From: Candidatus Babeliales bacterium
GTDB lineage: Bacteria > Babelota > Babeliae > Babelales > JANWKD01
Reading direction: 5' to 3'
Assembly: GCA_963722255.1 (NCBI GenBank)
Contig: CAVRJO010000001.1
Span: 841,775-905,774 of the forward strand
Length of the DNA: 64,000 nucleotides
Positions 9,083 to 30,286 of the stretch are shown in pieces; the first letter of the stretch is position 1; every line of letters begins with the position of its first letter. The position numbers and the translations under genes were made by a program. The notes beneath the pieces are model-generated. The model saw only the letters and a list, made by a program, of their open reading frames with translations, did not search any database and was not told where the DNA came from.

Positions 9083-9297
9083 TTTTATCCCTTTTTTTCT
9101 TATTTTTACATGCCATTTATTGTAAGCATATCTGATATTTTGGCTTCAATTCAATAATTTATCAATTTTGATATTTTATAGTAGATGAATTATGATTTTT
9201 TCGACTATTGCAAATAGAAACTGTATTTTGATACTCTATTAATTAGATAATTAAAAAAATAGTGCTTTAAAAACAGCCAATAATTGGGGAGGATATT

Positions 9298-9750: not shown

Positions 9751-9802
9751 GTAATTAAAAAGATATATGTAATTATAAATGAATTTAATTAAGGAGAATG
9801 AC

Positions 9803-10165: not shown

Positions 10166-10201
10166 TGAACGAAATTAAAATTAAATAAAGGGAGAATAAA
10201 A

Positions 10202-10519: not shown

Positions 10520-10549
10520 TAAATTTGTGGTTGGATAAGGAATAATTGA

Positions 10550-10951: not shown

Positions 10952-11044
10952 AATAACTATTTATTGCAAAAAAGATTTTTGATTATTTACACTTAACTTT
11001 ATATAAGCATATTTTTTACTCGTGTAAAGTAGGTAAGGTTTTTA

Positions 11045-12298
11045 GTGAAAATTACCAATGTAAAAGCACGTGAAATTTTTGATTCTCGAGGTATGCCAAC
11101 TCTTGAGTGCCAAATTTTTCTTGACCATGATCATTACGTTTTAGCATCAGTCCCTTCAGGAATGTCAAGGGGTATTCATGAAGCAGTGGAACTACGCGAT
11201 GGAGGATCACGATTATTTGGTAAAGGTGTTTTAAAAGCAAGTCAGATTATAGAAACGGTTTTTGCGCCGCAACTTATTGGCACATCTCCAGATCTTTTAG
11301 TTATCGATACTTTTATGATTGAGGCGGATGGAACGGTAAATAAAGCAAAGTATGGTGCAAATAGCATGCTTGCTGTAAGTATGGCTGTTGCAAAGGCACA
11401 AGCATTGAGTGAGCATATGGAGCTTTATGAATGTATAGCGCATCTTTATGGTGCACAAACGGTAATGCTCCCGTATCCGCTCTTTAATGTAATCAATGGT
11501 GGCATTCACGCAGATAATAATCTCTTTTTTCAAGAATTTATGATTTTGCCTATTGGTGGATCAAATTTTCGAGAGTCGCTTGAATTGGGGGCGCTATTTT
11601 TTTATGAACTAAAAGTCTTATTAAAAAAAACAAACAAACCAATTGTATATGGCGATGAAGGTGGAATTGCATCTTCATTTGAATCAGAATATGAAGCACT
11701 CGATATGATAACCGAGGTAATAGCGCGAATTGGCGATGGCAATCTATTTCGTATAGCTCTTGATGTTGCAGCATCCGAATTTTATAATGTTACAACGCAC
11801 TGTTATGATTTACATGATGAATTCTTAACATCAGAAGAACTAGTCGCTTTGTATGCTAAACTTATTCAAACATATCCAATTTTCTCAATTGAAGATGGAT
11901 TAGCGCAAGATGATTGGCAAGGATGGATGCATATGAAGAGCGTTTTGGGTGACACTATTCAGCTTGTTGGTGATGATCTTTTTGCGACTTCTGCTCAAAG
12001 AATTAAACATGGCGTTATGGTTGATGCCGCTAATGCTGTCATTATTAAACCCAATCAGGTGGGAACGATTACTGAAACATTGCAAACTATTCAATTTTGT
12101 TTCGAACAGGGTTTAAATACTATCATCTCACATCGATCCGGAGAAACAGAAGATACTTTTATTGCTGATTTAGCCGTAGGAACAAGTGCAGGTCAAATAA
12201 AAGCCGGTGGTCTTTCTCGTTCAGAGCGGCTTGCAAAATATAATCGTTTATTACGCATTGAAGATACGTTGTTATCAAGTATGTTGCTCGATGTTTAA
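11045..12298 (+). CDS. eno: Enolase
   Basis: REIFDSRG, EAVELRDG, NGGIH, QEFM, GDEGG, DVAASEF, SIEDG, GDDLF, KPNQ, SHRSGET, QIKAG. Confidence 0.96.
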   Translation: MKITNVKAREIFDSRGMPTLECQIFLDHDHYVLASVPSGMSRGIHEAVELRDGGSRLFGKGVLKASQIIETVFAPQLIGTSPDLLVIDTFMIEADGTVNKAKYGANSMLAVSMAVAKAQALSEHMELYECIAHLYGAQTVMLPYPLFNVINGGIHADNNLFFQEFMILPIGGSNFRESLELGALFFYELKVLLKKTNKPIVYGDEGGIASSFESEYEALDMITEVIARIGDGNLFRIALDVAASEFYNVTTHCYDLHDEFLTSEELVALYAKLIQTYPIFSIEDGLAQDDWQGWMHMKSVLGDTIQLVGDDLFATSAQRIKHGVMVDAANAVIIKPNQVGTITETLQTIQFCFEQGLNTIISHRSGETEDTFIADLAVGTSAGQIKAGGLSRSERLAKYNRLLRIEDTLLSSMLLDV

Positions 12299-14671
12299 GG
12301 GAGCTTCATGCTCTGATAAAGGATTTTCTTGTCCTCGTATCAAATCTTCAAGTTGCCGTATTTTATCACGTTCTTCGCTATGAATCTTGCCAGGGATTGG
12401 AACTTCAGGTCTTTCTGCAATATAGTCATCAATAACATCATGCGCAAAGTTAGGGTCAGGCTTGAAGAACCAACGTGTAATTGGATCACGTAAATCTTCA
12501 AAATTTGAAGACTCTTGAAGATTATTTTCAGCATAGCACAATTTGCTTTCTGTATAAGGATCATAACCACCACCCAGTCGAGGTTTAATGATTTTGGGAC
12601 AAATAAAAATCATTAAGTTTGTTTTTATTTTCACCTTGTTGCGACGCTTGAAGAACCAACCAAATAAAGGAATCTGACTCAAAAATGGTGTATCGTTTTC
12701 AATAGTTTGATCACTAATTTTAACCAGTCCTCCTAAAGCAAGCACCTCACCATCACCTACATTGGCATTAGTTTGCACCAATCGTGTTGCGCGATTGTTT
12801 GCGCTACTTAAAAATTCGTTGACGGTAATGTTGATTTGAAGATTAATATTTTTTGCACCTTCGCTGATGGTAGGTAAAATATCAATCGCAGTTGCAGCAG
12901 TAACATATTCATTTTTTACGGTAATGGATCCGCCATCACTATTTGCTCCACCAGGTAAAAAACGCTGTTGAGCAAGAGAAATTGTTGCTTGCTTGTTGTC
13001 CATAGTTGTAATAAACGGTTGTGTTAATATGGTAGTATTTGCGTACTTATCTAAAATTTGTAAAATATTCCAAATTCCGCTTCCATTTGGGTCATTAAAA
13101 GAAATTATTAGTGAACCAGGTGTTGATTGATTTGCAAAGTTGGCCGTACCATCTAGCTGCAAAAGATTTGCCATCAATGCATTTGCAGGAAATTGATTAA
13201 CAGTTTGACCAAGTTCATTGGTAATTCCAGCGGCTGTAATAATTGGGGTTGTAAGATTTGCCGTTTGAAAATTAATGTTATCTGAGACGCTTGTGTTAAA
13301 ACCACTTTTGTTACGCATTTGCGTTCCAACGATTTGGTTTTTTTGTGACGTAAGATCAACAACTAAAACTTCTATTGCTACCTGTGGTTGAGGCGTATCA
13401 AGTTCTTTTATTAATTTTTTTATACGTATCCAATCTTCTTTACGTGCAGCAACGAGCAAACGGTTGCCTCCTTGTTGTACGCCTTCTGATTGTGCTGCCT
13501 CCGGTTGTCCCTCTACAGCCGTAGGAGCAATTGTTGCAGCAATGCTTGTTTTTTCAGCTTCAACAATAACATCTTGAAAATATCTACGAGGGCCGGCAGA
13601 GACTTGCCCTTGTGATTGAGCTGTGGTGTCTTGTTTGTTAACTAATTGTTGCAATATGGGAGCAAACTCTTCTGCATTTAAATATTGTAGATCATATAAA
13701 TGTAGTATTGATTTTCCTGAATCAAGAGGATGATCGATATATTTTACAATGAATTCTTTAACAATATGAATAGACCGTGTTGTTCCCATAATTACAATGG
13801 TGTTTGTGCGATCTAGCGCAAGAACCTTGGTGTTCGGTGGAAAATAGGTGCTTGATTTTATGGGTGCTTCGCGTGCAACACCCGGAGTAACAGGTACTTG
13901 TGCTGTTGCAAGAAGCTTTTTGAATAGCTCTTCGATAAAAGTTGCTTGCACATGAAATAGAGGAATTACTTGAATATCGTCAGGAATCCCTTCAAGATCA
14001 AGTTGTCGAATTATCGTCATTGCAGCACGTATGATATTTGATTTATCAATAAGGATCAATGCATTTGTTTTAGCATCAGTTTTAATGACCGCAGTAGGTG
14101 AAAGCATTCCTGTTGGTGCTTTTAAAATTTGATCTAAAGGACTATTAGGATCGGTAACTTTTAAATTAGAAAGATAAAATACTGCTTGAATGACTTGTCC
14201 AGTTTCCGGCAAATCTTCTAAAGGAGGATTTATATAGAGTGGAAGTGGTTCACGTTGAATGTTTTGATCGATTTTTAAAAGAGTCAATTGATCATTTTTA
14301 AGTTCCCAACTATAACCAATAAAATCAAGAATTCTACCTAGTTCTTGCCATGCTTGATCGAGTGTAACTTTGTAGGGAAGTGAAAATTTAACTTTTGCTG
14401 AAAGCGCTTGGGACCCCTGAGGTAAAAGCACATTGACTTTCTTTTCTGCTGCGAGTTCATTAATGATGTCTATGAGAGCAACATCTTGATAGTTAAATGA
14501 ATATTTCTTTTCAAAACTTTTTGATTCAGGTTGCTCTTGAGTAACTGATTCTAAGGTAGGTTTTATATTGAGTTTTTCCTCAAGTAGTTGTTTTATTGAT
14601 TCTTCAGGTTGCGCATCAACCTTGACAAAGGTATTCAATAAAAGGAGCATTAAAACTATTTTTAAAACCAT
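12275..14671 (-). CDS. gspD: Type II secretion secretin, second copy
   Basis: N0/N3 repeats (YDLQYLNAEE), LDTPQPQVAIEVLVV, PFLSQIPLFGWFFK, NLMIFICPKII. Confidence 0.88.
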   Translation of the reverse strand: MVLKIVLMLLLLNTFVKVDAQPEESIKQLLEEKLNIKPTLESVTQEQPESKSFEKKYSFNYQDVALIDIINELAAEKKVNVLLPQGSQALSAKVKFSLPYKVTLDQAWQELGRILDFIGYSWELKNDQLTLLKIDQNIQREPLPLYINPPLEDLPETGQVIQAVFYLSNLKVTDPNSPLDQILKAPTGMLSPTAVIKTDAKTNALILIDKSNIIRAAMTIIRQLDLEGIPDDIQVIPLFHVQATFIEELFKKLLATAQVPVTPGVAREAPIKSSTYFPPNTKVLALDRTNTIVIMGTTRSIHIVKEFIVKYIDHPLDSGKSILHLYDLQYLNAEEFAPILQQLVNKQDTTAQSQGQVSAGPRRYFQDVIVEAEKTSIAATIAPTAVEGQPEAAQSEGVQQGGNRLLVAARKEDWIRIKKLIKELDTPQPQVAIEVLVVDLTSQKNQIVGTQMRNKSGFNTSVSDNINFQTANLTTPIITAAGITNELGQTVNQFPANALMANLLQLDGTANFANQSTPGSLIISFNDPNGSGIWNILQILDKYANTTILTQPFITTMDNKQATISLAQQRFLPGGANSDGGSITVKNEYVTAATAIDILPTISEGAKNINLQINITVNEFLSSANNRATRLVQTNANVGDGEVLALGGLVKISDQTIENDTPFLSQIPLFGWFFKRRNKVKIKTNLMIFICPKIIKPRLGGGYDPYTESKLCYAENNLQESSNFEDLRDPITRWFFKPDPNFAHDVIDDYIAERPEVPIPGKIHSEERDKIRQLEDLIRGQENPLSEHEAPLNIEQHT

Positions 14672-14680
14672 GGTTATTTT

Positions 14681-15247
14681 TTACTCCGATTTCTGTAATT
14701 CTTGCTTTGGTTCTAGCGTAGCAATCGTAATTTTTACGTTAATAGCTTGAGGTTTTTTTGCTTTTTCTATTTCAAGTTCTTTTGTATAAATTCTTTCTTC
14801 TTGTTCAATAGCATAGAGCAATTCACTTAATTTTTTTGTATTCAAGTTAGCAAGATTCGCGTAAAGTGTCCATTCGGTATATCCATCAAGCACGTCTTTA
14901 GGTAATGTTTCCGGTTCTTGAGCCTTGTTTGAAGCGATGCCCAACCTTTCAAGAAGATTTTCAAAATATTGTGCAATTTTAAAACTTTTATCTTTTGCTA
15001 AAATTGTATTTACTTCTACTTGTTGCTTTTTGACACGTTCATAGCGTTCAAGCATATTTTGAACATCTTTTCTTTTTTTATTTATAGCACTAATTTTTGA
15101 TTTAAGCTGTCCTGCAGAGCGATAGTAGGTAACAATAAGAAGCCCTAAAAGTAGTATAATGCAACTTAAAGCGATCAGAGCATATTTTTTAAAATCTTTT
15201 GCATCAAGAGTATCAAGATAATTTTTAATGCTGAGGATGAAGTTCAT
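14681..15247 (-). CDS. GspM/PilO-like inner-membrane platform protein
   Basis: Single N-terminal TM, coiled coil, ferredoxin-like C-terminus; follows the GspL-like gene. Confidence 0.65.
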   Translation of the reverse strand: MNFILSIKNYLDTLDAKDFKKYALIALSCIILLLGLLIVTYYRSAGQLKSKISAINKKRKDVQNMLERYERVKKQQVEVNTILAKDKSFKIAQYFENLLERLGIASNKAQEPETLPKDVLDGYTEWTLYANLANLNTKKLSELLYAIEQEERIYTKELEIEKAKKPQAINVKITIATLEPKQELQKSE

Positions 15248-16878
15248 TGTTCATCTCCATTTTTTTTCAATGGTAACGTAATGATAAATTTTGGAGCTTG
15301 CAGACTTGCAATAGAACTAAACAAATTTGATCGTTTAAGTTCTTTTTCTAATATTTTTAAAGCATCAAAATCTCGAACTTCACCATCGAGTATAATATTT
15401 CTTGGTTCCTCAGTGATGCTTAATTTTTTTAGATTAAGCCCGGTGGCTTCGCGATCAATTGCTGCAGTAAGATCTTGCAAGTATTTCAAAAATGAAAAAC
15501 GCGTTTGGCTTGAGAATGCAAACCAAATTGTTTCTTCTTGTTTCACTTTTTCTTCAGATTTTTTTAATGCTTCAGTCAAGGATTTTGCGGTCGTTAATCC
15601 ACGGTGTTTAAGCGTGGAAACAATTGCGATTTCATAATTTTTTAAGGCTTTTTTGAGCGTTCCCAGTTGCCAATAGGTATAAAAGAGAATACCTGCAAAG
15701 GTGAGCACAATAAGCGAAAGCGCAGTAAAAAGTTGTCGATAAAAAAGCCCTGAATCAACAATTGAAAATTCATGTCTTCTTAAATTAAAATTTTCAACAG
15801 TTGGGGTAATAAGCGCTGTACTTAAACTTAAGATGGAAGACTGAGGGATTCTGTTTCCACTTTTTAAGGTTATGAAGTCAGTTTTTAATAGTTCATTGCT
15901 ATCAAAAAGGTTACAGGTGATTCCTAATTGTTGTGTAAAAAATTGTGGTAGGTTAGCAATATCAGAACCTTGGCCTAAAAGAAGAATCTCTTTTATCTTA
16001 TTTTCAGTTTTAGTTTGCGCCGTAAAAGAATCAAGAGTGAATTTAATTTCATTTAAGAACGATGATAATGCTTCTTTGATTGCATCATTAAAGGGTTGAT
16101 CATTATTGTGATTAAAGCCAAACCTAATAATTTTTTCTAAGGCATCATTTGAATTTATACTATTTTTTTGCGCTACTTGTTTAGCCCATTGCAACAATCC
16201 TTTTGCAAGTGTTCGTACAAGAGTTAATTTTCCATCTACAATGAAGGCGATGCGTGTTACATTAAAACCAATATCAATGAGCGCATAGTTTCCTGTCGCG
16301 TCTTTATATTTTGGAATGCATTTATAAAGTCCATAAAGATCAAAGAGATCGACCGTAATGGTTGTAGGACTTACACCTGCTTGTTCAAAATAGCTTATAT
16401 GTTCTGCAATATGTTCTTTTTTAACTGCTGCAGCTAATATAACCGATGATTGTTGTGCAGGATTGCTTTGAGTGATAATAAAATCGATAATGGTTTGGTT
16501 AATGGGAAAAGGTAAAAAGGGTTCAATTTCGTAATTGATAACCATGCTAATTTTTTCAGGATCTGAAAAAGGAAGTGTTAATTCTTTGAATATAGCAATT
16601 GAGCTTGAGATGGATGTTCGTAATGCATCATAGCGATCAACTTTGGTTAAAATAGTAGCAATGGTTTTAGAAACGCGTTCAGCATAAGGAGCGGTTGCTT
16701 CTAATTCTAAAGGCTGATCGATGAACTTTTCGAGCGTAACTTTTTTCCCATGTAATAAGAGTTGTGTAACATGAATAGTTGTTTTACCTATATCAAAGCC
16801 TAAAATTCGCTGTTTAACCAGATAATATGAACCTACTTTTTTGGGGATTAAAACATCAGTAATTAAGCGACCAATCAT
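15244..16878 (-). CDS. GspL / PilM-PilN-like fusion protein
   Basis: ILGFDIG and ALIDIG actin-like motifs, LLLGQGS, FNLR, a TM segment, then a periplasmic domain with ILDGE. Confidence 0.75.
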   Translation of the reverse strand: MIGRLITDVLIPKKVGSYYLVKQRILGFDIGKTTIHVTQLLLHGKKVTLEKFIDQPLELEATAPYAERVSKTIATILTKVDRYDALRTSISSSIAIFKELTLPFSDPEKISMVINYEIEPFLPFPINQTIIDFIITQSNPAQQSSVILAAAVKKEHIAEHISYFEQAGVSPTTITVDLFDLYGLYKCIPKYKDATGNYALIDIGFNVTRIAFIVDGKLTLVRTLAKGLLQWAKQVAQKNSINSNDALEKIIRFGFNHNNDQPFNDAIKEALSSFLNEIKFTLDSFTAQTKTENKIKEILLLGQGSDIANLPQFFTQQLGITCNLFDSNELLKTDFITLKSGNRIPQSSILSLSTALITPTVENFNLRRHEFSIVDSGLFYRQLFTALSLIVLTFAGILFYTYWQLGTLKKALKNYEIAIVSTLKHRGLTTAKSLTEALKKSEEKVKQEETIWFAFSSQTRFSFLKYLQDLTAAIDREATGLNLKKLSITEEPRNIILDGEVRDFDALKILEKELKRSNLFSSIASLQAPKFIITLPLKKNGDEQ

Positions 16879-19700
16879 CCGACAACCTCCTTAGTTTCCG
16901 GTAAAAAATCTGTGATCGACTGTTTCCTTTTGAGCGTTTTCTGATTTTTAAGCTTTGCTTGTGCGATTGAAGCTATTTTTGTTTCATCAGGAGAACCATT
17001 TTGTTTATTAGTAGTACAAAGAGGTATACATTCTGTAGTAGCTCGCTTTCTAATTGGTGCATATTCACTTTCAGGACATTGGCTGATTGGTTGGCATGGA
17101 CGAGGATTTTCAGGTTCACAAAGTTGTGTTACATGATCATCCGGCCCTGGAGGACAACAGCGACATCCTCCAATACAATCGGCGTAATTATTTGGACACA
17201 CAAGAGGAGGACATATTGCTGCCATCTGCGCAGCGATAGAATCTTCTTCATATTCCTGGCCCGTACGGCAGTTGTATGCAAGTGGCATTGAGCAAGCGCT
17301 TACATTATTGATATAGTTTTCAACGATTTCTGTATTTTCGCATGGCGTATCTTTGAAGAACCAACGATGAATAGGATCTCGCTGTTCAGAACAATCCTTC
17401 ATAGAGCACATAACGTCTTCAGCTTCCGAAGCTTTCTTTTCAGTGTATGCGCTCATCCCACCTTGAGGACGTGGTTGAACTATTTGTGGAGAAATAAAAA
17501 TAATTAAATTGTCTTTTAATTTATTTTTATACTTATTTTTAAAGAACCAACCGAATAATGGTATGCGTTGCAAAAGTGGCACACCATTCTGAAGCTCGTT
17601 AATATTGTCTTGTATAAGTCCACCAATTGCTAAAATCTCATTGTTGGCCATATTTGCATTAGTTTTAACCGTTTTTGTATCTTTAGTAGGGTTTATTGCA
17701 TCGGCATTAGTGAAGGTATCAAGACTTATTTCAATAGCAAGATTAATAATGCCGCTGCTGTTTATTTGCGGTGTGATAGCAACCGAAAGATTAGCCGATA
17801 CGTCGCCAAGAGTATTCTGAACAGGTCCTGCACCGGTTACTGTTCCCGTAGCAACACGACGGGTTTCACCAACAGAAACTTGCGCTGTGTATTTATTGGT
17901 GGTTGTTAAAAATGGATGCGATACAACGCTGGTATACGCATAGGTTTCAAGCGCTTGAAAGAGCGCCCAAACGCCACCAACTAAGCTGCTGCCTATTGAA
18001 ATTAATGTTGTCCCGGGGTTAAATCCTGTTGCTAAACTAACCAGATTGCCCATGAGGCCCCCCGCAGGATCAGTAACGATCGAAGTCTGAAGTCCAGGAA
18101 CGCCTAAGCCAGAGGTTTGAAATGCAATATTATCAGTAATTCCAAGTGTGTCTAAACGCTTATTGCGAATTTGTGTTCCAAGAGATTTAATTTTGTTAAC
18201 AGCAACATTAACAATGAGTACTTCAATCGCAACCTGCGGTTGTTTTACGTCCAATTTTTTTATGATTTCTTCTACTTTTAAGTAATCATCTTTTTCTGCT
18301 TTGATTAACAGTTTATTTCCCGAAGGTTCAGCGATAAAGGTCATTGGGCGCAAAAATTTATCTCCATCAAGAACTCCACCATATTTAGCTGCAACACTGC
18401 CTGGTGCAAAATTTGTAACTTTGCTTAAAATTGCAGCCATATTTTCAGCATTCGCATATTGCAATTTATAAACATAAAGAGGCGAATAAGGCTGCTTGAG
18501 GGAAGTGTCAACATATTCAAGAATGAAATTTTCAACTTTTTCTATACCTTCTCTAGTTCCCAAAATGATTAAGGCATTTCCACGAGGCTCAGCAAATAAT
18601 CGAGTATCTTCAGGAAAATAGATGGATGTTGATTGCTTTTTTTGACCAAAGAGCCTTGTTGCTATGGTAGATTTTTCTTCGGTAGATACGAGATTATCAT
18701 AGAGTGCTACGACATCTTGGGCGTTTGCATGTTTTAGTTTTAAAACAGACATACCTTCTGGCATGCTAACGCTATCAAGTTCTGAAATGATTGACATGAG
18801 GGAACGAATATTGGCTGCTTTATCGGTAAAAATTATCGCATTTAAGGCATTGAAAGTTTGAACAATTGCTGTTTTGCTTTTAAGATCTTGAACGAGATTG
18901 GCAAGGTTTGCAGCAGGACCATTTTCAACAAAATAGACGTAGCGAATTTTAGTATCATTGTTTGGCAATAATTTCCAATTTATTCCAACAAATGCAGGCA
19001 AAGCTGCTTGATTTGCAATATCTAAGGGAACTACATTGTATGAGTCGGGAAAATTATTGGTAAAATGAGTAGGTACGAGCGTTAATCCAAAAAGATCAAG
19101 AAAGTTTAAGAAAAGATCCCAAACATTTCGTTTGCTCATGGGCTCATGTGTTCTATACGTTATTAGGTTTCCTGCGACTTTTCCTGCCACAGGTGGATTG
19201 ATTGCATCACCGGTAAGAAATTTAACTTTAAAAATAGATTCGACCCACCCAAGAAGATTGAGAAGCTCTGTTTTATCAAGATTAACCGATATAGTTTTTT
19301 CTGAAGGATTAAATGCTTCAAAAGGCATAAGAGATGAAGGGTTTCTTAACAAATGCTCTTCAGTATCTTCTCGCGATTTAAATGATGAAGCAAGATCTTG
19401 TTGTGAGATTGAAATGTTTTTGGGAATGTCCATTTCATTTGGGACTTTATCTATTTTTTTGGGTTGAGCAGTTTGTGGTAATGGATCTTCAAAGCCTTTA
19501 TTGTTTCGCTGTAATCGTTCTTGCTTTGAAACTCTTCTTTTTTTAACGCGACCATTATCTTTTGTGGAACCTGATGAAGATAACGTAGGTTCTGATGCCA
19601 TAGTGTTGTTCATCGTAGGCAAACAGAGAAAAATAAGCACCAAGAATGTATTGCCAAGAGCTTTATAATAATTTCTAACGTTCATGTATCTTTTCCACAT
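16875..19700 (-). CDS. gspD: Type II secretion secretin with a Cys-rich C-terminal extension
   Basis: LKHANAQD, LQYANAEN, LDVKQPQVAIEVLIV, VPLLQRIPLFGWFFK, NLIIFISPQIV. Confidence 0.9.
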   Translation of the reverse strand: MWKRYMNVRNYYKALGNTFLVLIFLCLPTMNNTMASEPTLSSSGSTKDNGRVKKRRVSKQERLQRNNKGFEDPLPQTAQPKKIDKVPNEMDIPKNISISQQDLASSFKSREDTEEHLLRNPSSLMPFEAFNPSEKTISVNLDKTELLNLLGWVESIFKVKFLTGDAINPPVAGKVAGNLITYRTHEPMSKRNVWDLFLNFLDLFGLTLVPTHFTNNFPDSYNVVPLDIANQAALPAFVGINWKLLPNNDTKIRYVYFVENGPAANLANLVQDLKSKTAIVQTFNALNAIIFTDKAANIRSLMSIISELDSVSMPEGMSVLKLKHANAQDVVALYDNLVSTEEKSTIATRLFGQKKQSTSIYFPEDTRLFAEPRGNALIILGTREGIEKVENFILEYVDTSLKQPYSPLYVYKLQYANAENMAAILSKVTNFAPGSVAAKYGGVLDGDKFLRPMTFIAEPSGNKLLIKAEKDDYLKVEEIIKKLDVKQPQVAIEVLIVNVAVNKIKSLGTQIRNKRLDTLGITDNIAFQTSGLGVPGLQTSIVTDPAGGLMGNLVSLATGFNPGTTLISIGSSLVGGVWALFQALETYAYTSVVSHPFLTTTNKYTAQVSVGETRRVATGTVTGAGPVQNTLGDVSANLSVAITPQINSSGIINLAIEISLDTFTNADAINPTKDTKTVKTNANMANNEILAIGGLIQDNINELQNGVPLLQRIPLFGWFFKNKYKNKLKDNLIIFISPQIVQPRPQGGMSAYTEKKASEAEDVMCSMKDCSEQRDPIHRWFFKDTPCENTEIVENYINNVSACSMPLAYNCRTGQEYEEDSIAAQMAAICPPLVCPNNYADCIGGCRCCPPGPDDHVTQLCEPENPRPCQPISQCPESEYAPIRKRATTECIPLCTTNKQNGSPDETKIASIAQAKLKNQKTLKRKQSITDFLPETKEVVG

Positions 19701-20824
19701 TATGCTTGATGGTTAAGGAGCATATTTAAGTTTCTCCTGTCTCGATTTCCATAATTTACCATCTCACGTTTTTGTTGCATTTTCAACTGATCTAATGTTG
19801 GCGCAAACTGTTTTTGTTTGCGCAAGAGGTCAATTTTTTCTGCCTCTATTTCTTGTAATGATTTTTCTTTACCCAATATAGTTTGCGTTTCAACCGTTGG
19901 TTCTTCCAACTGTTGCAGTGTATACGTTATGTTTATTTCTTGTTGATTACGCAGAAGGGTTACTTCGATGGTACTTCCAAGATCCATTGAAATTATTTTT
20001 TGATAAATTTCAAAACGCGAATCAGTTGTTGTAGCGGGTATTGCATTTATTGATTCGATAATATCGCCTGTTTGCAATCCCAGAGCAATTCCAATTGTTT
20101 TTGGTTGTAACGTACCAATTCGGCATCCAATGCTTTGTCCTTTTTTGTAAACAGTGAATAAATTGAGCGTCTCAATAAGTTCAGCTAAGTTAGGAATCGA
20201 CTGAATAAATGCACGAGGATCAACAAGATAATCAAATGGCCCTTTCTTTTGAACAACAGAAGACCAATTTGCTCGTGATTGCATTTGCTGATCGATTTCA
20301 GCATCATACTGATTTACATAAAGGGTCTCTTGTTGGCCATTTGAGCGTACTAAAATAATTTTATTGGTGAAAATTCTTATGAGTTGTGCATCATCGATTC
20401 TATCACCTACGATATAGTTTTTCGTGATTGAATTCTTACTGTCTTGAATAATGGCAATATTTTCAGATTCATCTGAAAGAGTAATTATTCCCTTAAGAAC
20501 AATCTGTAAAGGTTCTAAAAACTTAGGAGGCAATGCAAGAGGGACTTTTACCGGTTGAGGAGTTGGTGGTTCAGGCATAGTAATTTTTTGAACCTCTTTT
20601 TCTTCCTCTTTTAATTCCTGTGGTTTGTATGTTTCAAAAAGATCATTGATATAAATTTTACTTAAATCAATTTTTGAAACAGCTTTTTTCGGTAATTTTA
20701 TTTCCATTTTTGATGTTAAAGGTACTGGGGTAGGAACTTTTTGTTGTGAAATAAACATGAACCCTACAATCGTTATGAAAACAATAAAAAGTATATCATT
20801 AACGAGCCAAAAGGGATGTTTCAT
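19700..20824 (-). CDS. gspC: GspC-like protein (TM, HR domain, PDZ)
   Basis: N-terminal TM, Pro-rich linker, LKGII..AII..Y.VGD HR domain, GLQTGDIIESIN PDZ; directly upstream of gspD. Confidence 0.82.
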   Translation of the reverse strand: MKHPFWLVNDILFIVFITIVGFMFISQQKVPTPVPLTSKMEIKLPKKAVSKIDLSKIYINDLFETYKPQELKEEEKEVQKITMPEPPTPQPVKVPLALPPKFLEPLQIVLKGIITLSDESENIAIIQDSKNSITKNYIVGDRIDDAQLIRIFTNKIILVRSNGQQETLYVNQYDAEIDQQMQSRANWSSVVQKKGPFDYLVDPRAFIQSIPNLAELIETLNLFTVYKKGQSIGCRIGTLQPKTIGIALGLQTGDIIESINAIPATTTDSRFEIYQKIISMDLGSTIEVTLLRNQQEINITYTLQQLEEPTVETQTILGKEKSLQEIEAEKIDLLRKQKQFAPTLDQLKMQQKREMVNYGNRDRRNLNMLLNHQA

Positions 20825-20953
20825 TAAGCTTTCCTTTTTTAAATTTTATTTTCAAACAATAACCTTGTTGGGTTAGGTTTGTCAAGCGGAAATTTAAGAT
20901 TCTTGAGGCGTTGTCAGCTAAATGAAAAGTGAGAAAATGCATATTAATAACAC

Positions 20954-21940
20954 CTATGGCGTAGGAATGGTGTTAAGAATTATGCGAACAATATCATCCG
21001 ATTCAATTGCTTGACTTTCGGCCTCGTAGGTCAGAATAATTCTATGTCTTAATATTGGCAATGCTACAGCTTTAATATCATCAGGAGTTACAAAATATCT
21101 TTTTTTCAGAAAAGCATGCGCTTGAGCCGCATTGATAAGAGCAATAGTTGCGCGCGGTGAAACACCATATTTTATCAAGTTTTTGAGTTGATTAAGATTA
21201 AATAATTCTGGGGTTCTCGTTGCAAAGACAAGCGCTATGCAATAATTATAAATTTTTTCATCAATATATATATCTTTAATAAGCCGTTGCTGAGTCAAAA
21301 TTTCTTCATGAGAAATTTGCTGTGTAATGGGCAGTTCAAGATGAGTCTTTTTAACAATCTCTTTTTCTTGTTCCATTGTTGGGTAGGTGACGAGGAGCTT
21401 AAACATGAAGCGATCGATTTGAGCTTCAGGTAGTCGATAAGTGCCTTCTTGTTCTACGGGATTTTGAGTAGCAAACACCAAAAATGGTTTTTCAAGATTA
21501 AAGGTTGTAGATCCAATAGTAACTTGTTGCTCTTGCATTGCTTCAAGAAGTGCTGCTTGCACCTTTGCCGGAGCCCGATTAATTTCATCAGCTAAAATTA
21601 AATTTGCAAAAATAGGGCCTTTTTTTGTTTCAAAATCTTGAGTTTTTTGATTATAAATTAAAGTCCCAATTAGATCTGCCGGAAGAAGATCTGGTGTAAA
21701 TTGAATTCGTTTGAATGAAAGGCCCAATGCTTTTGTTATGGCTTTAATCATAGTTGTTTTTGCAACTCCAGGAACTCCCTCAAGAAGGACATGGCCATTG
21801 CAAAGAATGCTTATAAGAATAAAGGTGATAATATCTTCATGACCAACAATAACTTTGCTTACTTCGTGAGCTATGTTGGTAAATTTTTTTTCTTCTTTAA
21901 TGTGTTCTGCAAGGGTAACGCTTGAAACATGTGCTTCCAT
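20954..21940 (-). CDS. moxR: MoxR-family AAA+ ATPase
   Basis: LLEGVPGVAKT, RIQFTPDLLPAD, DEINRAPAKVQAALLEAMQE, ATQNPVEQEGTY. Confidence 0.93.
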   Translation of the reverse strand: MEAHVSSVTLAEHIKEEKKFTNIAHEVSKVIVGHEDIITFILISILCNGHVLLEGVPGVAKTTMIKAITKALGLSFKRIQFTPDLLPADLIGTLIYNQKTQDFETKKGPIFANLILADEINRAPAKVQAALLEAMQEQQVTIGSTTFNLEKPFLVFATQNPVEQEGTYRLPEAQIDRFMFKLLVTYPTMEQEKEIVKKTHLELPITQQISHEEILTQQRLIKDIYIDEKIYNYCIALVFATRTPELFNLNQLKNLIKYGVSPRATIALINAAQAHAFLKKRYFVTPDDIKAVALPILRHRIILTYEAESQAIESDDIVRIILNTIPTP

Positions 21941-22077
21941 TTTTTACCTCACAATACTAAAAATTTTATTACAAAACAGAAAAATATACATGATCATTGT
22001 ACCAAGAGAGTCTCTCTTTGACAAGGAGGATATTTATAATAAAAATTATAGTAGTGAGACATGTTAATGTAGAAAAA

Positions 22078-23919
22078 CTAGCTTCTCTGCATTCTTTTTG
22101 CTCTAACCAAAAGATCTTTTAAGTGAGCAGCAACTCTTTTTAATTCTTCTAATTGTGCTATGAGTTTATTTGTATTTACAGGAGTTCTTGTAGCTATGCT
22201 TCTTTTTCTTTCCTCTTCTTTACGACGTTCTTCTGCTTGCGCGCTGCGTTGAGCTTCGAGTTGTTCTTTTTTTCGTTGTTCTTCAAGAGCTTTTTTGCGC
22301 TGCTCTTCTTTTTGTTTTTTTTCTCGTTCTCTTTGCGCTTCTTCTTGCCGTTTACGTTCGCGCTCTCCTTGCTCTCTTCTTTTCCGTTCTTCTTCTAAGC
22401 GGCGTTGTTCTTCAAGAGCTTTTTTATGCAGTTCCAGTTCTCTTTGGCCTCGCTCTTGTTCAAATTTTTCAATCTTTTCTCTTTCTATACGTTGGGCTTC
22501 AAAAAGGCTTGCTTTTTCTTCTTCTTCTCTACGTTTTTTTCTTAATTCTTCTGCTTTTTTTTCTTCTTCTAGAAGCTTATCAATGAGTTTTGAAATGGCT
22601 TTTTCATCTGCTTCTTTTTGTTTGCCCTTTTGTTCTTTTTTCTCTATTTTTTCTATTAATAGTTTTCTTGTTGCTTTTTCTCTTTCGGCTTGTTTACGTA
22701 TAGCTTCTTGCATTTCTTCTCGTCGTTTTTGTCCTTCCTCTGTAGGAGCTTCTTGAGCAGCTTCTTCGATTTGTTGGTAAAAAAGAATGTAACCGTCTTT
22801 ATTAATCTCTTGTTGGGCTTGTGTCTCTGTAACCCGATTAAAAGCTGAGTCGTTACATAAATACCATTGATTGTTTAATTTTACATAAGCAACATAATGA
22901 CCAGAATTTGCAGCAGGTCCTTGATGATTAATTGCTGCATAAAGATCATATTTTGTATTCTTTGTGCCTTCTATAAATTTCGTCATACTAAGGATGAAGG
23001 GAATTTCTATCTTGTGCGATAATTTTATGACATCGCGGTCATTCTTTTCTGGGTCAAAGCCACTTCCAAATCTCAAAAGGTTGATCAACAATATCGGCGA
23101 TGGTTGCGTTATTTGCTGTTCATAAAGTTGTTTATTTAGCATCTCGGTCAAACTGGCATAACGCTGTATTTTTGATAGAATCTTAATCCGTCCTTTTGAG
23201 CTATAAGCATCTGAAGATTCTCCTCGTTCTACTTGATTAAAATTTAATATTTCATTACCAGCAAACGTCGGTAGAAAAAGCAAAAGTTGTGGTCGAATAT
23301 ATGGTTCTTCTTTTATTTTGAAAAATAAAAGATCTGATATTTTTTTATAGTTTATCGAATCTTCATTGGTGCCTTGTAATGAAGAAATTAATCTATCTAA
23401 AAATTCGCTCGCATCTTGTTCTTCAGCCATTTTTTGAATTTTGTTCAAGAGGATTTTTATTTCTTCAGGATTTTTTTTAAGGGTATTTGCTAATGTTTTG
23501 ACAAGTTCTGATTCCTTGCCTTGTTCTTTTCCATATTGTTTCAAAGATTCTTCAAGAGCTCTCTTTAATTCTATATCTTCTATTGAAGATGATTCTTCTT
23601 CTTTAATAGAAGGTGATTCGCGTTGCTCAGTAGTAGGTACAAGGGAAGAATAAAATGTGAATAAAGAAGCATCGATCGCGTGTTGATCATTGAGTTTAAT
23701 TGAGTTCAATAAGTTTTGAAATTGTTGTGAGATTGGGTCAGTAAATTGTAAAGTTGGTATAAGCTCTGTCAATGGATTAGTTGCATTAAGCGCTTGAATA
23801 ATTGCATTGACATAACAGCTGCTCCCATAATTTCTTAACTTTGGTGGTTGTGTTTTAATTGAAATTGGAAACACAACTAAAAACAATAAACAACTTACTA
23901 TCAAAATAATTTTTTTCAT
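22078..23919 (-). CDS. Secreted USP-family (peptidase C19) deubiquitinase with UIM and C-terminal coiled coil
   Basis: Signal peptide; Cys box LRNYGSSCYVNAIIQAL; QDASEFL; LLINLLRF; His box HQG..NSGHYVAYVK..WYLCNDS; GYILFYQ. Confidence 0.88.
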   Translation of the reverse strand: MKKIILIVSCLLFLVVFPISIKTQPPKLRNYGSSCYVNAIIQALNATNPLTELIPTLQFTDPISQQFQNLLNSIKLNDQHAIDASLFTFYSSLVPTTEQRESPSIKEEESSSIEDIELKRALEESLKQYGKEQGKESELVKTLANTLKKNPEEIKILLNKIQKMAEEQDASEFLDRLISSLQGTNEDSINYKKISDLLFFKIKEEPYIRPQLLLFLPTFAGNEILNFNQVERGESSDAYSSKGRIKILSKIQRYASLTEMLNKQLYEQQITQPSPILLINLLRFGSGFDPEKNDRDVIKLSHKIEIPFILSMTKFIEGTKNTKYDLYAAINHQGPAANSGHYVAYVKLNNQWYLCNDSAFNRVTETQAQQEINKDGYILFYQQIEEAAQEAPTEEGQKRREEMQEAIRKQAEREKATRKLLIEKIEKKEQKGKQKEADEKAISKLIDKLLEEEKKAEELRKKRREEEEKASLFEAQRIEREKIEKFEQERGQRELELHKKALEEQRRLEEERKRREQGERERKRQEEAQREREKKQKEEQRKKALEEQRKKEQLEAQRSAQAEERRKEEERKRSIATRTPVNTNKLIAQLEELKRVAAHLKDLLVRAKRMQRS

Positions 23920-24044
23920 GACCACCCTCATAAACTTTTACTGATGTTTTAGTTTAGGCATAAAGGTGTTCAATAAGTCAATTGTTGTGAGTGTATTTAT
24001 AAAATTAAATAAAAACAAAGCTGTATATTTTTATCAATAAATTA

Positions 24045-24836
24045 TTATGATTTTTTTGTTAATCCTGACATTAGTTCAGTTCCCAAAAAAATCCAACCAA
24101 TTGTAGCAATACTGATTTTCACAGATTTTATAAAAGGAGAAGAACCAATAAAATCTTCTGAAGCCATTAAGCGCCATAACGTACCAATCCCAACTGCACC
24201 ATGAAATGTCGCTAACGCTAGAGATGTTTTTGGGTTTTTTTGCATGAATGCCTTTCGTTTAGGAGAAATGGCAGGTGTTTCTGCAGCTGTTTGCATTGTT
24301 TCATAAAGCCTTTCGGCATAGGCGCGTATTCCTGGAGTAAGTAACAGACTATTTAAAGCAATGCTGGGATATGCATATTCATCTTGCAAGAGATATTCGT
24401 TTTCTTCAAAATTATAATTCCAAACTGTGGCAGAGCCTTTGGAGTTTGCTTCTTCTTTTAAAAATACTTTGTTGATTAGTGAGGCAATGATTTCTTTATC
24501 TTTTTTATATTCTTGAATAATAAATTTTTTTACAGTTTCATGTTGAATGAATTGTTTTAAATTTATAATTTGTTGAGCATGTTCATCATTAATAAGATAT
24601 GTGGGAATACAACGAACAATAACTGTTTTCTTACCTTGATATTCTTCATAAAAACATACATTGTCAGCTAATGATTTTTGTGCTAAAACTTCACCCATTG
24701 CGTCATGGTCTCCAAAATGAGTTGTGAATTCTGTGCTTGGGTTTTGTTGTGATTCTTGCTGTTCCATTGAGTAGCAAAAATTAATTAATGATACTATTGT
24801 TAAAAAAAACAGTGATTTTAAATTAATTTTTTTCAT
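24045..24836 (-). CDS. Secreted orphan with C-terminal hydrophobic hairpin
   Basis: Signal peptide then MEQ; two hydrophobic segments at the C-terminus. Confidence 0.7.
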   Translation of the reverse strand: MKKINLKSLFFLTIVSLINFCYSMEQQESQQNPSTEFTTHFGDHDAMGEVLAQKSLADNVCFYEEYQGKKTVIVRCIPTYLINDEHAQQIINLKQFIQHETVKKFIIQEYKKDKEIIASLINKVFLKEEANSKGSATVWNYNFEENEYLLQDEYAYPSIALNSLLLTPGIRAYAERLYETMQTAAETPAISPKRKAFMQKNPKTSLALATFHGAVGIGTLWRLMASEDFIGSSPFIKSVKISIATIGWIFLGTELMSGLTKKS

Positions 24837-24839
24837 TTT

Positions 24840-25577
24840 TTACTTGCTCAAAATTAAATCGGTATTATCCAAATGATCTCTTATCTCTGTTGCCCATATA
24901 ATTGCTATTTTAACATCTTCAATTTTATTGTTTTTTCTATTGGTTATGCAAGAAGGCAGGTGTTTTTCGATTCTTTCTTTTGTAAAAAAACCTGAAAGAA
25001 TAGTAGATAATCCAAAAATAGTTCCAGCTCCAACTAATTTGAAATCAGTTTCATAGCTGTTAAAACCGAATTTAAAAAAGTAATAACTCGAAATGCCAAG
25101 GATGGTAGTAATGCCTCCGCAAAAAAGTGAATCTATCGCTATTTTTTTAAAAGATTTATTATGTGGGAAATTTGCTTGTTCCCGCAAATAGTTTTGGTAT
25201 TGCCGTAATCCTTCAAGTTCAATTTCAGAATTTTCTTGAATATGCTTTTTTTGTCGTATGAAATTATAAGTATCGTTAATTTTTACCAATTTTGTTAAAA
25301 ATCGCGCTCGTGTTCTGAAATCAACTAATTCTTCATGAGATTTATTTTCATTATTATCTACAGAGCTTGTTGAAGGAGTTAGTAGAAATTGTATCCAAAA
25401 ATAATCAAATAAACAATCAAGAAAGCTTTTATCATTTTTTTGAGTAAGCCCTTTTGCTATTCCTTTTCCTAATTCCTTTCTAAACCCTTTACGAAAATCG
25501 TCCATACCTTTTATAGTGATGCATGAGAGGGATAGTGCAAGGATAATAAAAAAATACTGTATACTTTTGTTTTTCAT
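24840..25577 (-). CDS. Secreted orphan with bilobed hydrophobic segment
   Basis: Signal peptide then MDD; paired TM segments. Confidence 0.7.
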   Translation of the reverse strand: MKNKSIQYFFIILALSLSCITIKGMDDFRKGFRKELGKGIAKGLTQKNDKSFLDCLFDYFWIQFLLTPSTSSVDNNENKSHEELVDFRTRARFLTKLVKINDTYNFIRQKKHIQENSEIELEGLRQYQNYLREQANFPHNKSFKKIAIDSLFCGGITTILGISSYYFFKFGFNSYETDFKLVGAGTIFGLSTILSGFFTKERIEKHLPSCITNRKNNKIEDVKIAIIWATEIRDHLDNTDLILSK

Positions 25578-27394: not shown

Positions 27395-28192
27395 CTATGC
27401 CTTATTCAAGAGATATGATAATACTGATTGTTTGAACGAAGCTGGGATAAATAATCCCGCAGTTAGCCCCACTAATCCAGTTGCGAGCATGCATGTGCCT
27501 GAATAGTTTTTAAAAAAGCTGCTTTTTTTGTTTAGGTGCTCTGCAGGTATACGTTCCTCGGGTTTTGTTGCTATTGAGGTTGGCTGCAATATTTCAATTT
27601 TAGATTGTAGTAATTTTGCTTGGGATTGCCGAAATTGTTCTTCAATTTTACGGTTTTTTTTGATCAATCTCTCTCTTGTAGCTCGTATATTATCAAGATC
27701 TTTTTGTAGTATTTTATATTCCTCATTTAATATACTTATATCAACTCTTAAGGCTTCTCGTTCTTCCTGTAAATCTTCTTCCGAAAAATCTATGATAGGC
27801 TCAGGAGCTCGTTGATTACTTTGAATATTTAAATGACGCCTAAGGCTTGCTATTTTTCGTATCTTTCTTTCTAATCTATCGCTTTTTGGTTTTTGTAGCG
27901 CATTTATAAACTCTCCAACTTCGATTCCTGTAGTAAATGTTGTTAGCGGTATTGCTTTGAGTTTTTTAAAAATTTCTCCAAGAGTCGGTAACGATATAAA
28001 ATTGGTCGCTTCGTGTGAATTTGAAAAATGAGAAATGTCAGGACGATATGCTGCCGCAGAAATACAGTGTAAGCCATCTCCTGGTTTGGCTTCGTATATT
28101 TTAGACTTTTTGTTCATGGTTTTTGTAACATGAATAGAGCCTAAGCCAATTAGAAATAATAGAAGATTTGAAAAAATTAAAGACTTTTTCAT
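27395..28192 (-). CDS. Secreted coiled-coil protein with C-terminal TM
   Basis: Signal peptide then MNK; coiled coil; TM; ends SYLLNKA. Confidence 0.72.
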   Translation of the reverse strand: MKKSLIFSNLLLFLIGLGSIHVTKTMNKKSKIYEAKPGDGLHCISAAAYRPDISHFSNSHEATNFISLPTLGEIFKKLKAIPLTTFTTGIEVGEFINALQKPKSDRLERKIRKIASLRRHLNIQSNQRAPEPIIDFSEEDLQEEREALRVDISILNEEYKILQKDLDNIRATRERLIKKNRKIEEQFRQSQAKLLQSKIEILQPTSIATKPEERIPAEHLNKKSSFFKNYSGTCMLATGLVGLTAGLFIPASFKQSVLSYLLNKA

Positions 28193-28288
28193 AAAATACT
28201 CCATTTATTATGATTATAATGTATTTTAATATATTTCAAATGTAACATAAATCTAAAAAAAGACAACTTACTATTAAGTGAGTATTCT

Positions 28289-29020
28289 TTAAGCTTTAGT
28301 AAGTAGATATGAGAAAATCGTCTGTTTTACTATAGGTAATGCTAATCCTGTAGCCAAGCCAATAGCTGCAGTAACTAGTGGTATGGAATAGGTGGAAAGA
28401 GGACTCAAATGCTTTTGTGGTATTTGTTGTGTTGTGTTTGGCATCTTTGTACAATTTCTTCTTACTTGTTCAAGATCATTAGGCACATTGGCTGTTCGTG
28501 CTTTTTTAGGATAGGATGGCTTCTTTTTTTCTTTCAAAATAGCCTTGATCGTATTTGTTTTTTCGGCTTTTCTTCCAATTTCTTCCTTTAATTTTCTATT
28601 TTTTGCGATTAGGTTGTTATTTCTTCTTATTAATCTTCTTCTGGTTTCAAGCAGTTTGTCGCGCTCCTCTTTAATTGGTGTTAAAAGAATATTGAAAAAG
28701 TTTTCGAGACAAAGCCTTGAACTATTTCTATTAAAGGCAATCGAAGAAACTGCATTGTTAACTACTTCACTAGTCAAACCAAATTTGTGAATATCGCCAT
28801 AATTTATTGTAAGCATTGTATTGGTATTAAGGCTACCAGCTAAAGTTCGAGCAAGTGCTGTAAAAATTCTTAAATGCTCTTCTTTTTTTTGATATTTTGA
28901 TTTTATTTTAAATGTCAGTTCTTGAACATAATGAGCGACTTCAATTTCCATAGTCATAGATAGCATTGGTATCAAGTTAAGAATTGCCAACAAAGATAAA
29001 GATTTTGCCATTTTTTTCAT
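28289..29020 (-). CDS. Secreted coiled-coil protein with C-terminal TM, paralog of 27395-28192
   Basis: TRRRLIRRN vs TRERLIKKN; ends KQTIFSYLLTKA vs KQSVLSYLLNKA. Confidence 0.72.
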   Translation of the reverse strand: MKKMAKSLSLLAILNLIPMLSMTMEIEVAHYVQELTFKIKSKYQKKEEHLRIFTALARTLAGSLNTNTMLTINYGDIHKFGLTSEVVNNAVSSIAFNRNSSRLCLENFFNILLTPIKEERDKLLETRRRLIRRNNNLIAKNRKLKEEIGRKAEKTNTIKAILKEKKKPSYPKKARTANVPNDLEQVRRNCTKMPNTTQQIPQKHLSPLSTYSIPLVTAAIGLATGLALPIVKQTIFSYLLTKA

Positions 29021-29554: not shown

Positions 29555-30286
29555 TTATGAGCAGAACAATCGAATATAATCTTGTTGTGTTTCTTTTACC
29601 ATTGTTGCAATGAAATTGATAAAATTAGAATCATCGCTATGAGCCTTTTCAAGAGCGTTAAAATAATCAGCGCGCATAATTGGCGGAATTATAGTAATGG
29701 TGTAACCATCTTGCAAAAGAGCTAAATTCATAAGAAGTCGTGCAACGCGACCATTTCCATCAATAAAAGGATGAATGAATACAAGTTTTTTATGTACTAA
29801 TGCCGCAAATTCTACGGGATGCATTTGTAAGCGAATCGTCCTGAGCTCATCGATAAAGTCATGCATAAGATTTGGCACATCTTCCGGAACGGGCAAGGGA
29901 TATTTCGAGCCGCTCAAGTATACTTTAACGCTGCGATATTTTCCTGCATTATGCTCATCAATTCTAAAATAAAAGAGATGGTGAAGCTGCTTTATAAGGG
30001 CTTCGGAAATTATTTTTTCTTTGAGATGATCTAATAAAAAGTCAAAAGCATCCGAATGACCAACGGCTTCAAAATGATCCAGCAATCATTTGCCGCCAAT
30101 AGTAATTCCTTCTTCAAGGACAACTTTAGTTTCAGACTCTGTTAAGGAGTTGCCCTCAAGAGCGTTGCTTGTGTATGTTAGACTAATTTTGTAATAATTC
30201 CACATTTGATTAAATGTTGGATCAAGTGGTCTAAACTCATCAATCTGTTTTTTTAGTGCATCAATTTGTTTAAAAATGGTTTTCAT
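29555..30286 (-). pseudogene. Fic-family protein interrupted by an in-frame TGA at 30086-30088
   Basis: SNALEGN in the 5' part; HPFIDGNGRVAR in the 3' part; both halves in one frame (GGK-TGA-LLDH). Confidence 0.85.

Follow-up and report, generated by a model that had tools for sequence, protein, structure and literature searches.

A candidate host-directed USP deubiquitinase with a predicted Sec signal, a charged stalk and a conserved C-terminal helix in a Babeliales bacterium

A 64,000-nucleotide stretch of a Candidatus Babeliales genome (contig CAVRJO010000001.1, positions 841,775 to 905,774 of the forward strand; hereafter the window) carries on its minus strand a gene for a predicted exported ubiquitin-specific protease (USP; peptidase family C19). 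From its N terminus, the encoded protein reads as a putative signal peptide, a USP catalytic domain, a long charged helical segment and a short amphipathic helix. The features of the gene are given below in window coordinates, with residues numbered throughout on the 617-amino acid (aa) open reading frame, in which the likely start Met is residue 5.

22078 to 23931, minus strand: full USP open reading frame, 617 aa plus stop.
22078 to 23919, minus strand: probable coding sequence, 613 aa, with its Met at 23919 (MKKIIL...).
23925 to 23929, minus strand: Shine-Dalgarno-like GAGGG, 5-6 nt upstream of the ATG at 23919, as read from the sequence.
23851 to 23919, minus strand: predicted Sec signal peptide, residues 5-27; n-region MKK, h-region IILIVSCLLFLVVF, c-region PISIKT, likely cut between T27 and Q28.
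22777 to 23838, minus strand: USP (peptidase C19) catalytic domain, residues 32-385, from PF00443, VIA-align and Foldseek.
23788 to 23838, minus strand: Cys box LRNYGSSCYVNAIIQAL, aligned to USP21, with the oxyanion Asn34 at 23830-23832 and the catalytic Cys39 at 23815-23817.
23536 to 23583, minus strand: helix IEDIELKRALEESLKQ, residues 117-132, resembling a ubiquitin-interacting motif (UIM) and set in the flexible insertion that separates the Cys and QDA boxes.
23401 to 23418, minus strand: QDASEF box, residues 172-177, with Asp173 invariant and Glu176 nearly invariant.
22846 to 22908, minus strand: His box NSGHYVAYVK and WYLCNDS, with His345 at 22897-22899, the gatekeeper Tyr346, and Asn360/Asp361 at 22849-22854.
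22201 to 22740, minus strand: charged helical stalk (coiled coil or single alpha-helix), residues 398-577, with model helices at 398-434 and 443-577; length polymorphic.
22084 to 22173, minus strand: conserved C-terminal amphipathic leucine-heptad helix, residues 587-616, pattern LxxLxxxLxxLxxxL, from model and alignment.

Initiation at 23919 was judged likelier than at 23931, because the spacing of the GAGGG fits and because the N termini of all 24 aligned relatives coincide with this Met (column M5, invariant in alignment A1 and nearly invariant in A2), as does that of the database copy P0002, which begins at the same MKK. The genome that carries the gene is 1.62 Mb in size and 93% complete, and a genome-level profile search recovered a single PF00443 copy. 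The Tgt protein encoded near the USP gene has its nearest named homologues in metagenome-assembled genomes of Candidatus Babeliales (72-75% identity). On sequence grounds, the organism is a member of the Babeliales/Dependentiae, obligate intracellular parasites of protists; this group is widespread and almost uncultured, and its control of the host is known from gene lists only.

The Pfam family UCH/USP (PF00443) matched residues 32-385 over profile positions 3-254 of 254, with 109.3 bits against a cut-off of 23.9 (E 3.3e-31), a search that the first-pass annotation of this DNA had proposed as a check and that returned a match over the whole profile. A phmmer search of PDB sequences gave 71 matches, and all of the 60 listed were USPs, led by USP21 (E 2.8e-12); the best sequence matches were USP21, USP36, USP4/15 and USP2. 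In the phmmer alignment with USP21, the Cys box LRNYGSSCYVNAIIQAL paired residue for residue with LRNLGNTCFLNAVLQCL, and SGHYVAYVK ... WYLCNDS with GHYTALCR ... WHVYNDS. Every open reading frame and motif feature that the first-pass annotation had described was recovered at its position, including an intact Cys box with its catalytic Cys codon (Cys39, exact at 23815-23817), the QDASEF box at residues 172-177, the GHY of the His box (His345) and the ND pair (Asn360/Asp361). Over 25 relatives at 22-60% identity, C39, H345, D361 and D173 were invariant, and N34 (oxyanion), Q46, E176 and Y346 (gatekeeper) nearly so. The gatekeeper was defined as an aromatic residue next to the catalytic His, a criterion taken from PMC10643670.

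An AlphaFold2 model built from the 25-sequence family alignment had a mean predicted local distance difference test score (pLDDT) of 81 and a predicted template modelling score (pTM) of 0.62, with the catalytic core mostly >90. Superposition with VIA-align gave a Z score of 29.1 for USP46 (5l8h_A; root-mean-square deviation [rmsd] 2.7 Å, 257/311 residues, model range 26-389), 28.4 for USP7 and 27.8 for USP2, with rmsd values for these three of 2.4-2.8 Å over 251-257 residues. Of 997 aligned chains, 460 reached Z ≥ 8, and the USP18-ISG15 complex was among the top matches (Z 27.9). Foldseek returned 301 PDB matches at E ≤ 0.001 (USP7, E 1.2e-15). The predicted fold is a thumb-palm-fingers USP, in which the thumb helices and the palm are separated by beta strands at residues 204-251. 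The size of the domain (~360 residues) and the 250-265 residues aligned to canonical USPs argue for an intact Fingers subdomain in the model; since C39 and C359 are the sole cysteines after the signal, these Fingers would be without a zinc ribbon. A complete canonical USP/C19 domain is supported by the conserved residues, with the triad, oxyanion Asn, aromatic gatekeeper and QQD..E acidic motif all apparently intact.

The predicted signal peptide has a 14-residue hydrophobic core, Pro at -6, Ile at -3 and Thr at -1; this and all other signal peptide calls were made by eye and with a crude hydropathy rule, with no SignalP-type predictor. The model places a helix at residues 2-20, followed by coil. 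After PISIKT comes the conserved QPPKLRNYGSSCY, such that the predicted cut falls just before the conserved QPP; across the 25 relatives P29 never varies and P30 hardly does. If the Sec signal is cleaved there, the mature protein would thus begin ~12 residues before its catalytic Cys. The layout that the first-pass annotation had noted, a signal peptide directly before the USP Cys box, is thus present, with the signal itself predicted. A lipoprotein reading of the sequence IVSC (residues 11-14) was rejected, as this Cys lacks conservation and has only 9 residues before it, counted from the probable start. Profile searches of the genome identified two genes each for signal peptidase I and for the T2SS-E ATPase and T2SS-F components of the type II secretion system (T2SS). 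Judging from these genes and from the GspC-like and secretin genes described below, the genome does hold the requirements for export. A type IV pilus could just as well be the product of this T2SS-type gene set.

The region between the Cys box and the QDA box contains an insertion (approximately residues 100-140) of low model confidence, including a helix at 117-134 within a stretch of pLDDT <50. The UIM consensus consists of an acidic run and hydrophobic-x-x-Ala-x-x-x-Ser. By regular expression, the core [LIVMT]xxA[LIVMK]x[DEQSA]S was detected at the equivalent site in 9/25 family members, including the window protein (IEDIELKRALEESLKQ). Because Pfam hmmscan of residues 100-150 reported no UIM (PF02809) at E up to 10, this helix stays a lead, a candidate that may provide a second ubiquitin contact. 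C-terminal to the catalytic domain, residues 388-617 form a tail of 230 aa, of which 65% are E/K/R/Q, with model helices at 398-434, 443-577 and 587-616, as expected from the charged coiled coil of about 230 aa that had been proposed; residues 398-617 had no match in Pfam. In the database copy P0002, which is nearly identical, 43 residues between two KKALEEQR repeats are missing, from which we take the stalk to be polymorphic in length.

The leucine-heptad helix forms the extreme C terminus in 24/25 aligned relatives, whatever precedes it (it is internal in P0026), and in short family members it stands ~10-20 residues after the catalytic domain. A hidden Markov model (HMM) of the tail matched 43 of 84 library clusters that share the signal-USP layout (E ≤ 0.01; clusters described below), 23 of these 43 having helped to build the HMM. 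When the C-terminal 40 residues of all 1596 open reading frames of the genome were scanned with the USP-tail HMM (E ≤ 1), 9 matched, as compared to 11 reversed tails and 7 internal windows. The helix as a general secretion signal was rejected on this count, the C-terminal matches being no better than the controls. At ≥10 bits, a broader tail HMM matched only its 3 source proteins, while 4 reversed tails scored ≥10 and none ≥12. A clear tail was found in 3/1596 open reading frames, namely the USP, a NUDIX-like+NADAR protein and a NUDIX protein, all three tails being inside the scanning HMM. The latter two, both signal-bearing enzymes, were also the best non-USP matches of the USP-tail profile. 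Their genes lie outside the window, on contig C2 of this genome (G000), at 149094-150335 (L025) and 170763-171671 (L026), and the tail motif is present in their homologues L028, L031, L032, L039, L041, L044 and L049. In a second genome of the same genus (G001), two NUDIX-like genes stand immediately behind the NADAR gene. With an HMM built from USP tails only, homologues elsewhere in the Babeliales scored 18.5, 15.1 and 8.1 bits (3/10 open reading frames) and 12.0, 11.5 and 9.5 bits (3/12 open reading frames) against a background in which 4/1596 tails reach 8.1 bits; in this comparison related genomes are non-independent samples, and the motif is low in information.

The N-terminal part of the NADAR protein resembles the NUDIX protein (BLASTP E 0.008). 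This loose relationship weakens the idea of three independent families with the tail, and the tail is accordingly counted as common to two lineages, the USPs and one loosely related NUDIX group. The role of the terminal helix is probably localisation or assembly rather than catalysis. A tentative extension of this idea, possible but short of an even chance, is that the leucine-heptad helix serves as a portable address or docking tag that would send a few exported "eraser" enzymes (USPs and NUDIX or NUDIX-NADAR proteins) to one place or scaffold at the parasite-host interface. If true, it would constitute a type of sorting or assembly signal that has not been described before and that acts on top of Sec export, and a tail common to USPs and ADP-ribose-type hydrolases would hint at coordinated removal of two host marks together with a targeting step. 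No description of the helix was found among the matches listed in the literature on Dependentiae/Babelota, a weak negative; the conserved tail helix appears undescribed so far.

Other genes of the ubiquitin system were sought in the same genome by profile. Two tandem F-box-like open reading frames of ~300 aa each scored above the Pfam cut-off (contig C2, 565227-566351, outside the window) and are further candidates for manipulation of host ubiquitin. No ubiquitin gene was detected at the Pfam cut-off, the one weak, partial match scoring 22.1 bits (cut-off 25.4) over 29/72 positions. OTU, C48 and U-box profiles gave no match in the genome, and two of these three were silent in every control genome, so that those two are uninformative on absence.

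The family profile matched 18/41 genomes among the relatives (this one counted), including 4/4 in the same family. In a sample of the phylum, 57/201 genomes had matches at E ≤ 1e-10, many with several copies, in a distribution patchy by family (22/28, 15/23 and 4/9 versus 4/67, 0/14 and 0/13). In a representative library of 1.84 billion proteins, E ≤ 1e-30 was reached by 98 proteins. Of the best 150 library clusters, at least 84 combined a hydrophobic N terminus with a Cys box within 70 residues, as counted by hydropathy and regular expression rules that a few more escape. Given at least 84 clusters and 57/201 genomes, USPs with a Sec signal and this one layout are probably among the largest bacterial families of USP deubiquitinases. 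Five library representatives were letter-identical to open reading frames of the Babeliales genomes G001, G004, G020 and G032, which ties the layout to this order. The rest of the best 150 were mostly long, eukaryote-like multi-USP chains. The highest non-family matches (P0022, P0025, P0027, P0031, P0034, P0036 and P0038) contain near-identical tandem USP domains in up to 30 stretches and resemble tandem arrays of eukaryotic genes that gene prediction has joined into one model. A 3751-aa open frame on contig C17 of G033, a related Babeliales genome (~7600-23700, outside the window) has at least three separate USP matches and may encode a giant multi-USP protein.

In a quick tree of 41 rows hand-picked from the 150, 34 signal-bearing proteins split from 7 eukaryote-like ones with SH-aLRT support of 97, the root being arbitrary. 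This topology would allow for a single old acquisition with later diversification. Scanning of a genome collection with the single protein found no relative, and scanning with alignment A1 found only distant USP fragments, in records of Cardinium, Chlamydiae, Parachlamydiales, Acidobacteriota and Cytophagales. The best feature scores in the ESM Atlas were 0.87-0.89, below the 0.9 lead level and mostly for giant-virus USP clusters, and were left unused for questions of origin.

The first-pass annotation had placed the USP gene two genes upstream of gspC on the same strand, and the order USP, MoxR, GspC-like was confirmed. The full order on the minus strand is tgt, two exported proteins without assignment, USP, MoxR, GspC-like, secretin, PilM-like, a 188-aa protein and a second secretin, with the following assignments:

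20954 to 21940, minus strand: MoxR-type AAA+ ATPase (PF07726 AAA_3, E 1.6e-65), between the USP and the secretion genes.
12275 to 20824, minus strand: type II secretion/type IV pilus-like cluster (PF11356, PF00263 twice, PF11104), with the next four rows.
19700 to 20824, minus strand: GspC-like protein (PF11356 T2SSC, E 5.9e-8).
16875 to 19700, minus strand: secretin, 941 aa (PF00263).
15244 to 16878, minus strand: PilM-like protein (PF11104 PilM_2).
12275 to 14671, minus strand: second secretin, 798 aa (PF00263), with the 188-aa protein before it in the cluster.

From the GspC-like gene to the second secretin, genes overlap or abut, whereas gaps of ~130 bp isolate each of USP and MoxR. The 941-aa secretin (16875-19700, minus strand) has a Cys- and Pro-rich C-terminal extension of ~150 residues past its secretin domain. 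Genome G001, from the same genus, preserves this entire arrangement, and six neighbours there are 65-81% identical to those in the window, as compared to only 32.5% for the USP-family protein P0023. In the quick tree, the proteins P0001 and P0003 grouped with P0008, P0030 and P0033 (support 84), apart from P0023. Because of its low identity and because it is not the nearest relative in this tree, P0023 could be an orthologue that evolves very fast or, alternatively, a paralogue that occupies this position. Divergence at this locus appears much faster than that of the neighbouring genes, as for an effector, and fast divergence within conserved synteny suggests conflict with host ubiquitin defences.

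Secreted C19 enzymes have been noted in this phylum before. The genome paper on Babela massiliensis (2015) reported three secreted C19 hydrolases, for which export by T2SS was predicted, the only secretion system detected (PMC4378268). The window USP resembles these in phylum, C19/USP class, predicted signal, T2SS route and a reading as interference with host ubiquitin; in the portion of that paper covered, the Babela genes are only listed, without architecture, family analysis or assay, and the two are set side by side here by description only. Outside the phylum, TssM of Burkholderia pseudomallei/mallei is a USP-type deubiquitinase and T2SS substrate, called the only described bacterial USP-type effector (PMC10719079), which prefers ester-linked ubiquitin and removes RNF213-mediated ubiquitination of lipopolysaccharide (LPS; PMC13720258, PMC10719079). 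SnUSP1-3 of Simkania were added in a 2026 review (PMC13720258), with SnUSP1 and SnUSP2 being active, linkage-promiscuous deubiquitinases (PMC10643670). The sections of these reviews covered thus name four characterised bacterial USPs, TssM and SnUSP1-3. The window protein is reminiscent of TssM as a bacterial USP-class enzyme with (here predicted) type II export, rather than type III, IV or VI secretion. TssM, however, is described as without Fingers and with an N-terminal Ig-like domain and a "Littlefinger" loop, whereas 250-265 residues of the window USP align to full-length USPs, and its catalytic domain directly follows the signal, leaving no room for an Ig domain before the Cys box. TssM was not among the matches listed by Foldseek and VIA-align for the model, and no direct comparison with TssM was made.

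With SnUSP1-3, the window protein shares a complete conventional USP domain, an amoeba-associated intracellular bacterium as its source, and active-site residues with an aromatic gatekeeper (PMC10643670). SnUSP1-3 are described as large proteins with internal hydrophobic regions and catalytic domains that begin at residues 60-187, SnUSP2 with a predicted type III signal; in contrast, the window USP has a predicted Sec signal, the catalytic domain at once, and then the stalk and tail helix. Eukaryotic USPs (USP46/12, USP7, USP2, USP21 and USP14) share the thumb-palm-fingers fold (Z 27-29) and the Cys, QQD and His boxes, but differ in the 20-29% identity, in having cysteines in the Fingers and in lacking a bacterial signal peptide. 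In view of the Babela report, TssM and SnUSP1-3, the window USP is, as a gene known from sequence, a new member of a type known in the phylum since 2015. The statement in the first-pass annotation that USP-type enzymes are uncommon in bacteria stands for characterised examples, which are few, and does not stand for this phylum, where such genes are common (57/201 genomes) and had been reported in 2015. The basic classification, anticipated in 2015, is unchanged, and the family-wide architecture and the common tail helix are the parts of interest. Three points look new: the UIM-like inserted helix, the fast divergence relative to neighbouring genes, and the presence of the heptad helix on NUDIX/NADAR proteins as well. 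The window USP is a compact protein that would lend itself to a clean first biochemical study.

The best reading of these data is an exported, host-directed USP deubiquitinase (MEROPS C19) of a Babeliales parasite, to which we assign a probability of approximately 75% on the strength of the intact USP domain, the Sec-type signal, the protist parasite lifestyle, the F-box-like pair and the lack of a ubiquitin gene above cut-off. The precursor would enter the Sec pathway via its N-terminal signal, be cut before QPP by signal peptidase I, and leave the cell via type II-like secretin machinery (no other secretion system having been reported from the phylum) or outer-membrane vesicles. Whether on the surface of the bacterium or in the cytoplasm of the host, the putative Cys39-His345-Asn360/Asp361 centre would cut after the C-terminal Gly of ubiquitin, with the UIM-like helix as a possible second ubiquitin contact and the 180-residue charged helix as a spacer. 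Ubiquitin attached by host ligases could thereby be removed from the parasite, its compartment or host proteins, such that ubiquitin-dependent autophagy or degradation would be blunted; that ubiquitin is stripped from the vacuole in particular, we infer. The host-directed effector proposed in the first-pass annotation is in keeping with the predicted USP fold, triad, signal and parasite context, and its tie to the secretion operon is weak: MoxR and the ~130-bp gaps stand between, and the adjacency is kept in only 1/5 related genomes.

Several points weigh against this deubiquitinase reading. The adjacency of USP and secretion genes was found in none of the four related genomes examined beyond the genus, as the ~19-kb regions around the USP gene in G003, G004, G020 and G032 contain no MoxR or secretion-gene homologue; it is for this reason weak evidence for functional coupling. 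Promoter-like sites (33 versus 32.5 expected) and terminator-like sites (6 versus 5.9) occur at chance level. A signal-like N terminus alone says little in this genome, since the hydropathy rule flags 758/1596 open reading frames, a proportion that fits the 44% of genes reported to have signal peptides in Chromulinavorax (PMC6561590). T2SS crosses the bacterial envelope only, and a parasite inside a host membrane compartment would need an extra step for its enzyme to reach cytosolic ubiquitin. Assembly of the triad is drawn from alignment, pLDDT, secondary structure and superposition; specificity for ubiquitin as opposed to NEDD8 or another GlyGly modifier is not readable from sequence; and across the family, activity, secretion and localisation are predicted properties.

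Three other explanations were weighed. Export of the Sec/T2SS type is common to the ester-preferring TssM, which acts on LPS ubiquitination (PMC13720258, PMC10719079), and a long stalk with a conserved terminal helix would suit tethering, such that the enzyme might be an esterase-type or surface deubiquitinase that removes ubiquitin from envelope lipids or sugars as TssM does, rather than a diffusing effector. We consider this unlikely: the model has a full-length canonical USP fold (257/311 residues of USP46, Z 29), whereas TssM is without Fingers, no sequence feature predicts ester preference, and protist hosts would have to ubiquitylate bacterial glycolipids. Specificity for a different GlyGly modifier, NEDD8 or a protist ubiquitin-like protein, has precedent in that some USP-fold enzymes act on other modifiers: SnUSP2 reacts with an ISG15 probe (PMC10643670), USPL1 cleaves SUMO (PMC10719079), and USP18-ISG15 at Z 27.9 was among the top structures. 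Against this, the family conserves two traits typical of USPs that act on ubiquitin, the acidic QQD..E motif and the gatekeeper Tyr, and the best sequence matches (USP21, USP36, USP4/15 and USP2) are ubiquitin-directed, making such a specificity improbable here.

The hydrophobic run of 14-18 residues is at the upper end for signal peptides and would also be consistent with an uncleaved signal anchor, the protein then being a periplasm-facing protease on bacterial proteins or a non-catalytic ubiquitin-binding remnant. Cleavage would be in keeping with the Pro at -6 and with the small or uncharged character of positions -1 and -3, QPP is conserved across the family, and the periplasm is without a known GlyGly-modifier substrate. 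Moreover, the catalytic residues are all invariant while the family falls to 22% identity, which argues for a selected catalytic function. An anchored protease or remnant is thus very improbable, and the exported, host-directed deubiquitinase is preferred.

Further genes in the window were recorded in passing. Four open reading frames of 243-269 aa without Pfam match (24045-25577 and 27395-29020, minus strand) have signal-like N termini and hydrophobic C-terminal segments; the two at 27395-29020 have like ends (SVLSYLLNKA and TIFSYLLTKA) and a charged helical middle. A signal-bearing ankyrin-repeat protein (46232-47767, plus strand) and a signal-bearing WD40-like protein (53360-54832, plus strand; this one below Pfam cut-offs) are eukaryote-like candidates for host interaction. 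A ClpB-type gene (50071-52638, plus strand) is split into four open reading frames that overlap or adjoin one another, covering Clp_N+AAA, AAA_lid_9 and two AAA_2 halves with ClpB_D2-small, as either a pseudogene or the result of frameshift errors in the assembly. The window also contains a HEPN/nucleotidyltransferase pair (7686-8380, minus strand), a Fic-domain protein (29555-30085, minus strand) and an IS3-type transposase pair (HTH_Tnp_1 and rve; 59365-60593, plus strand).

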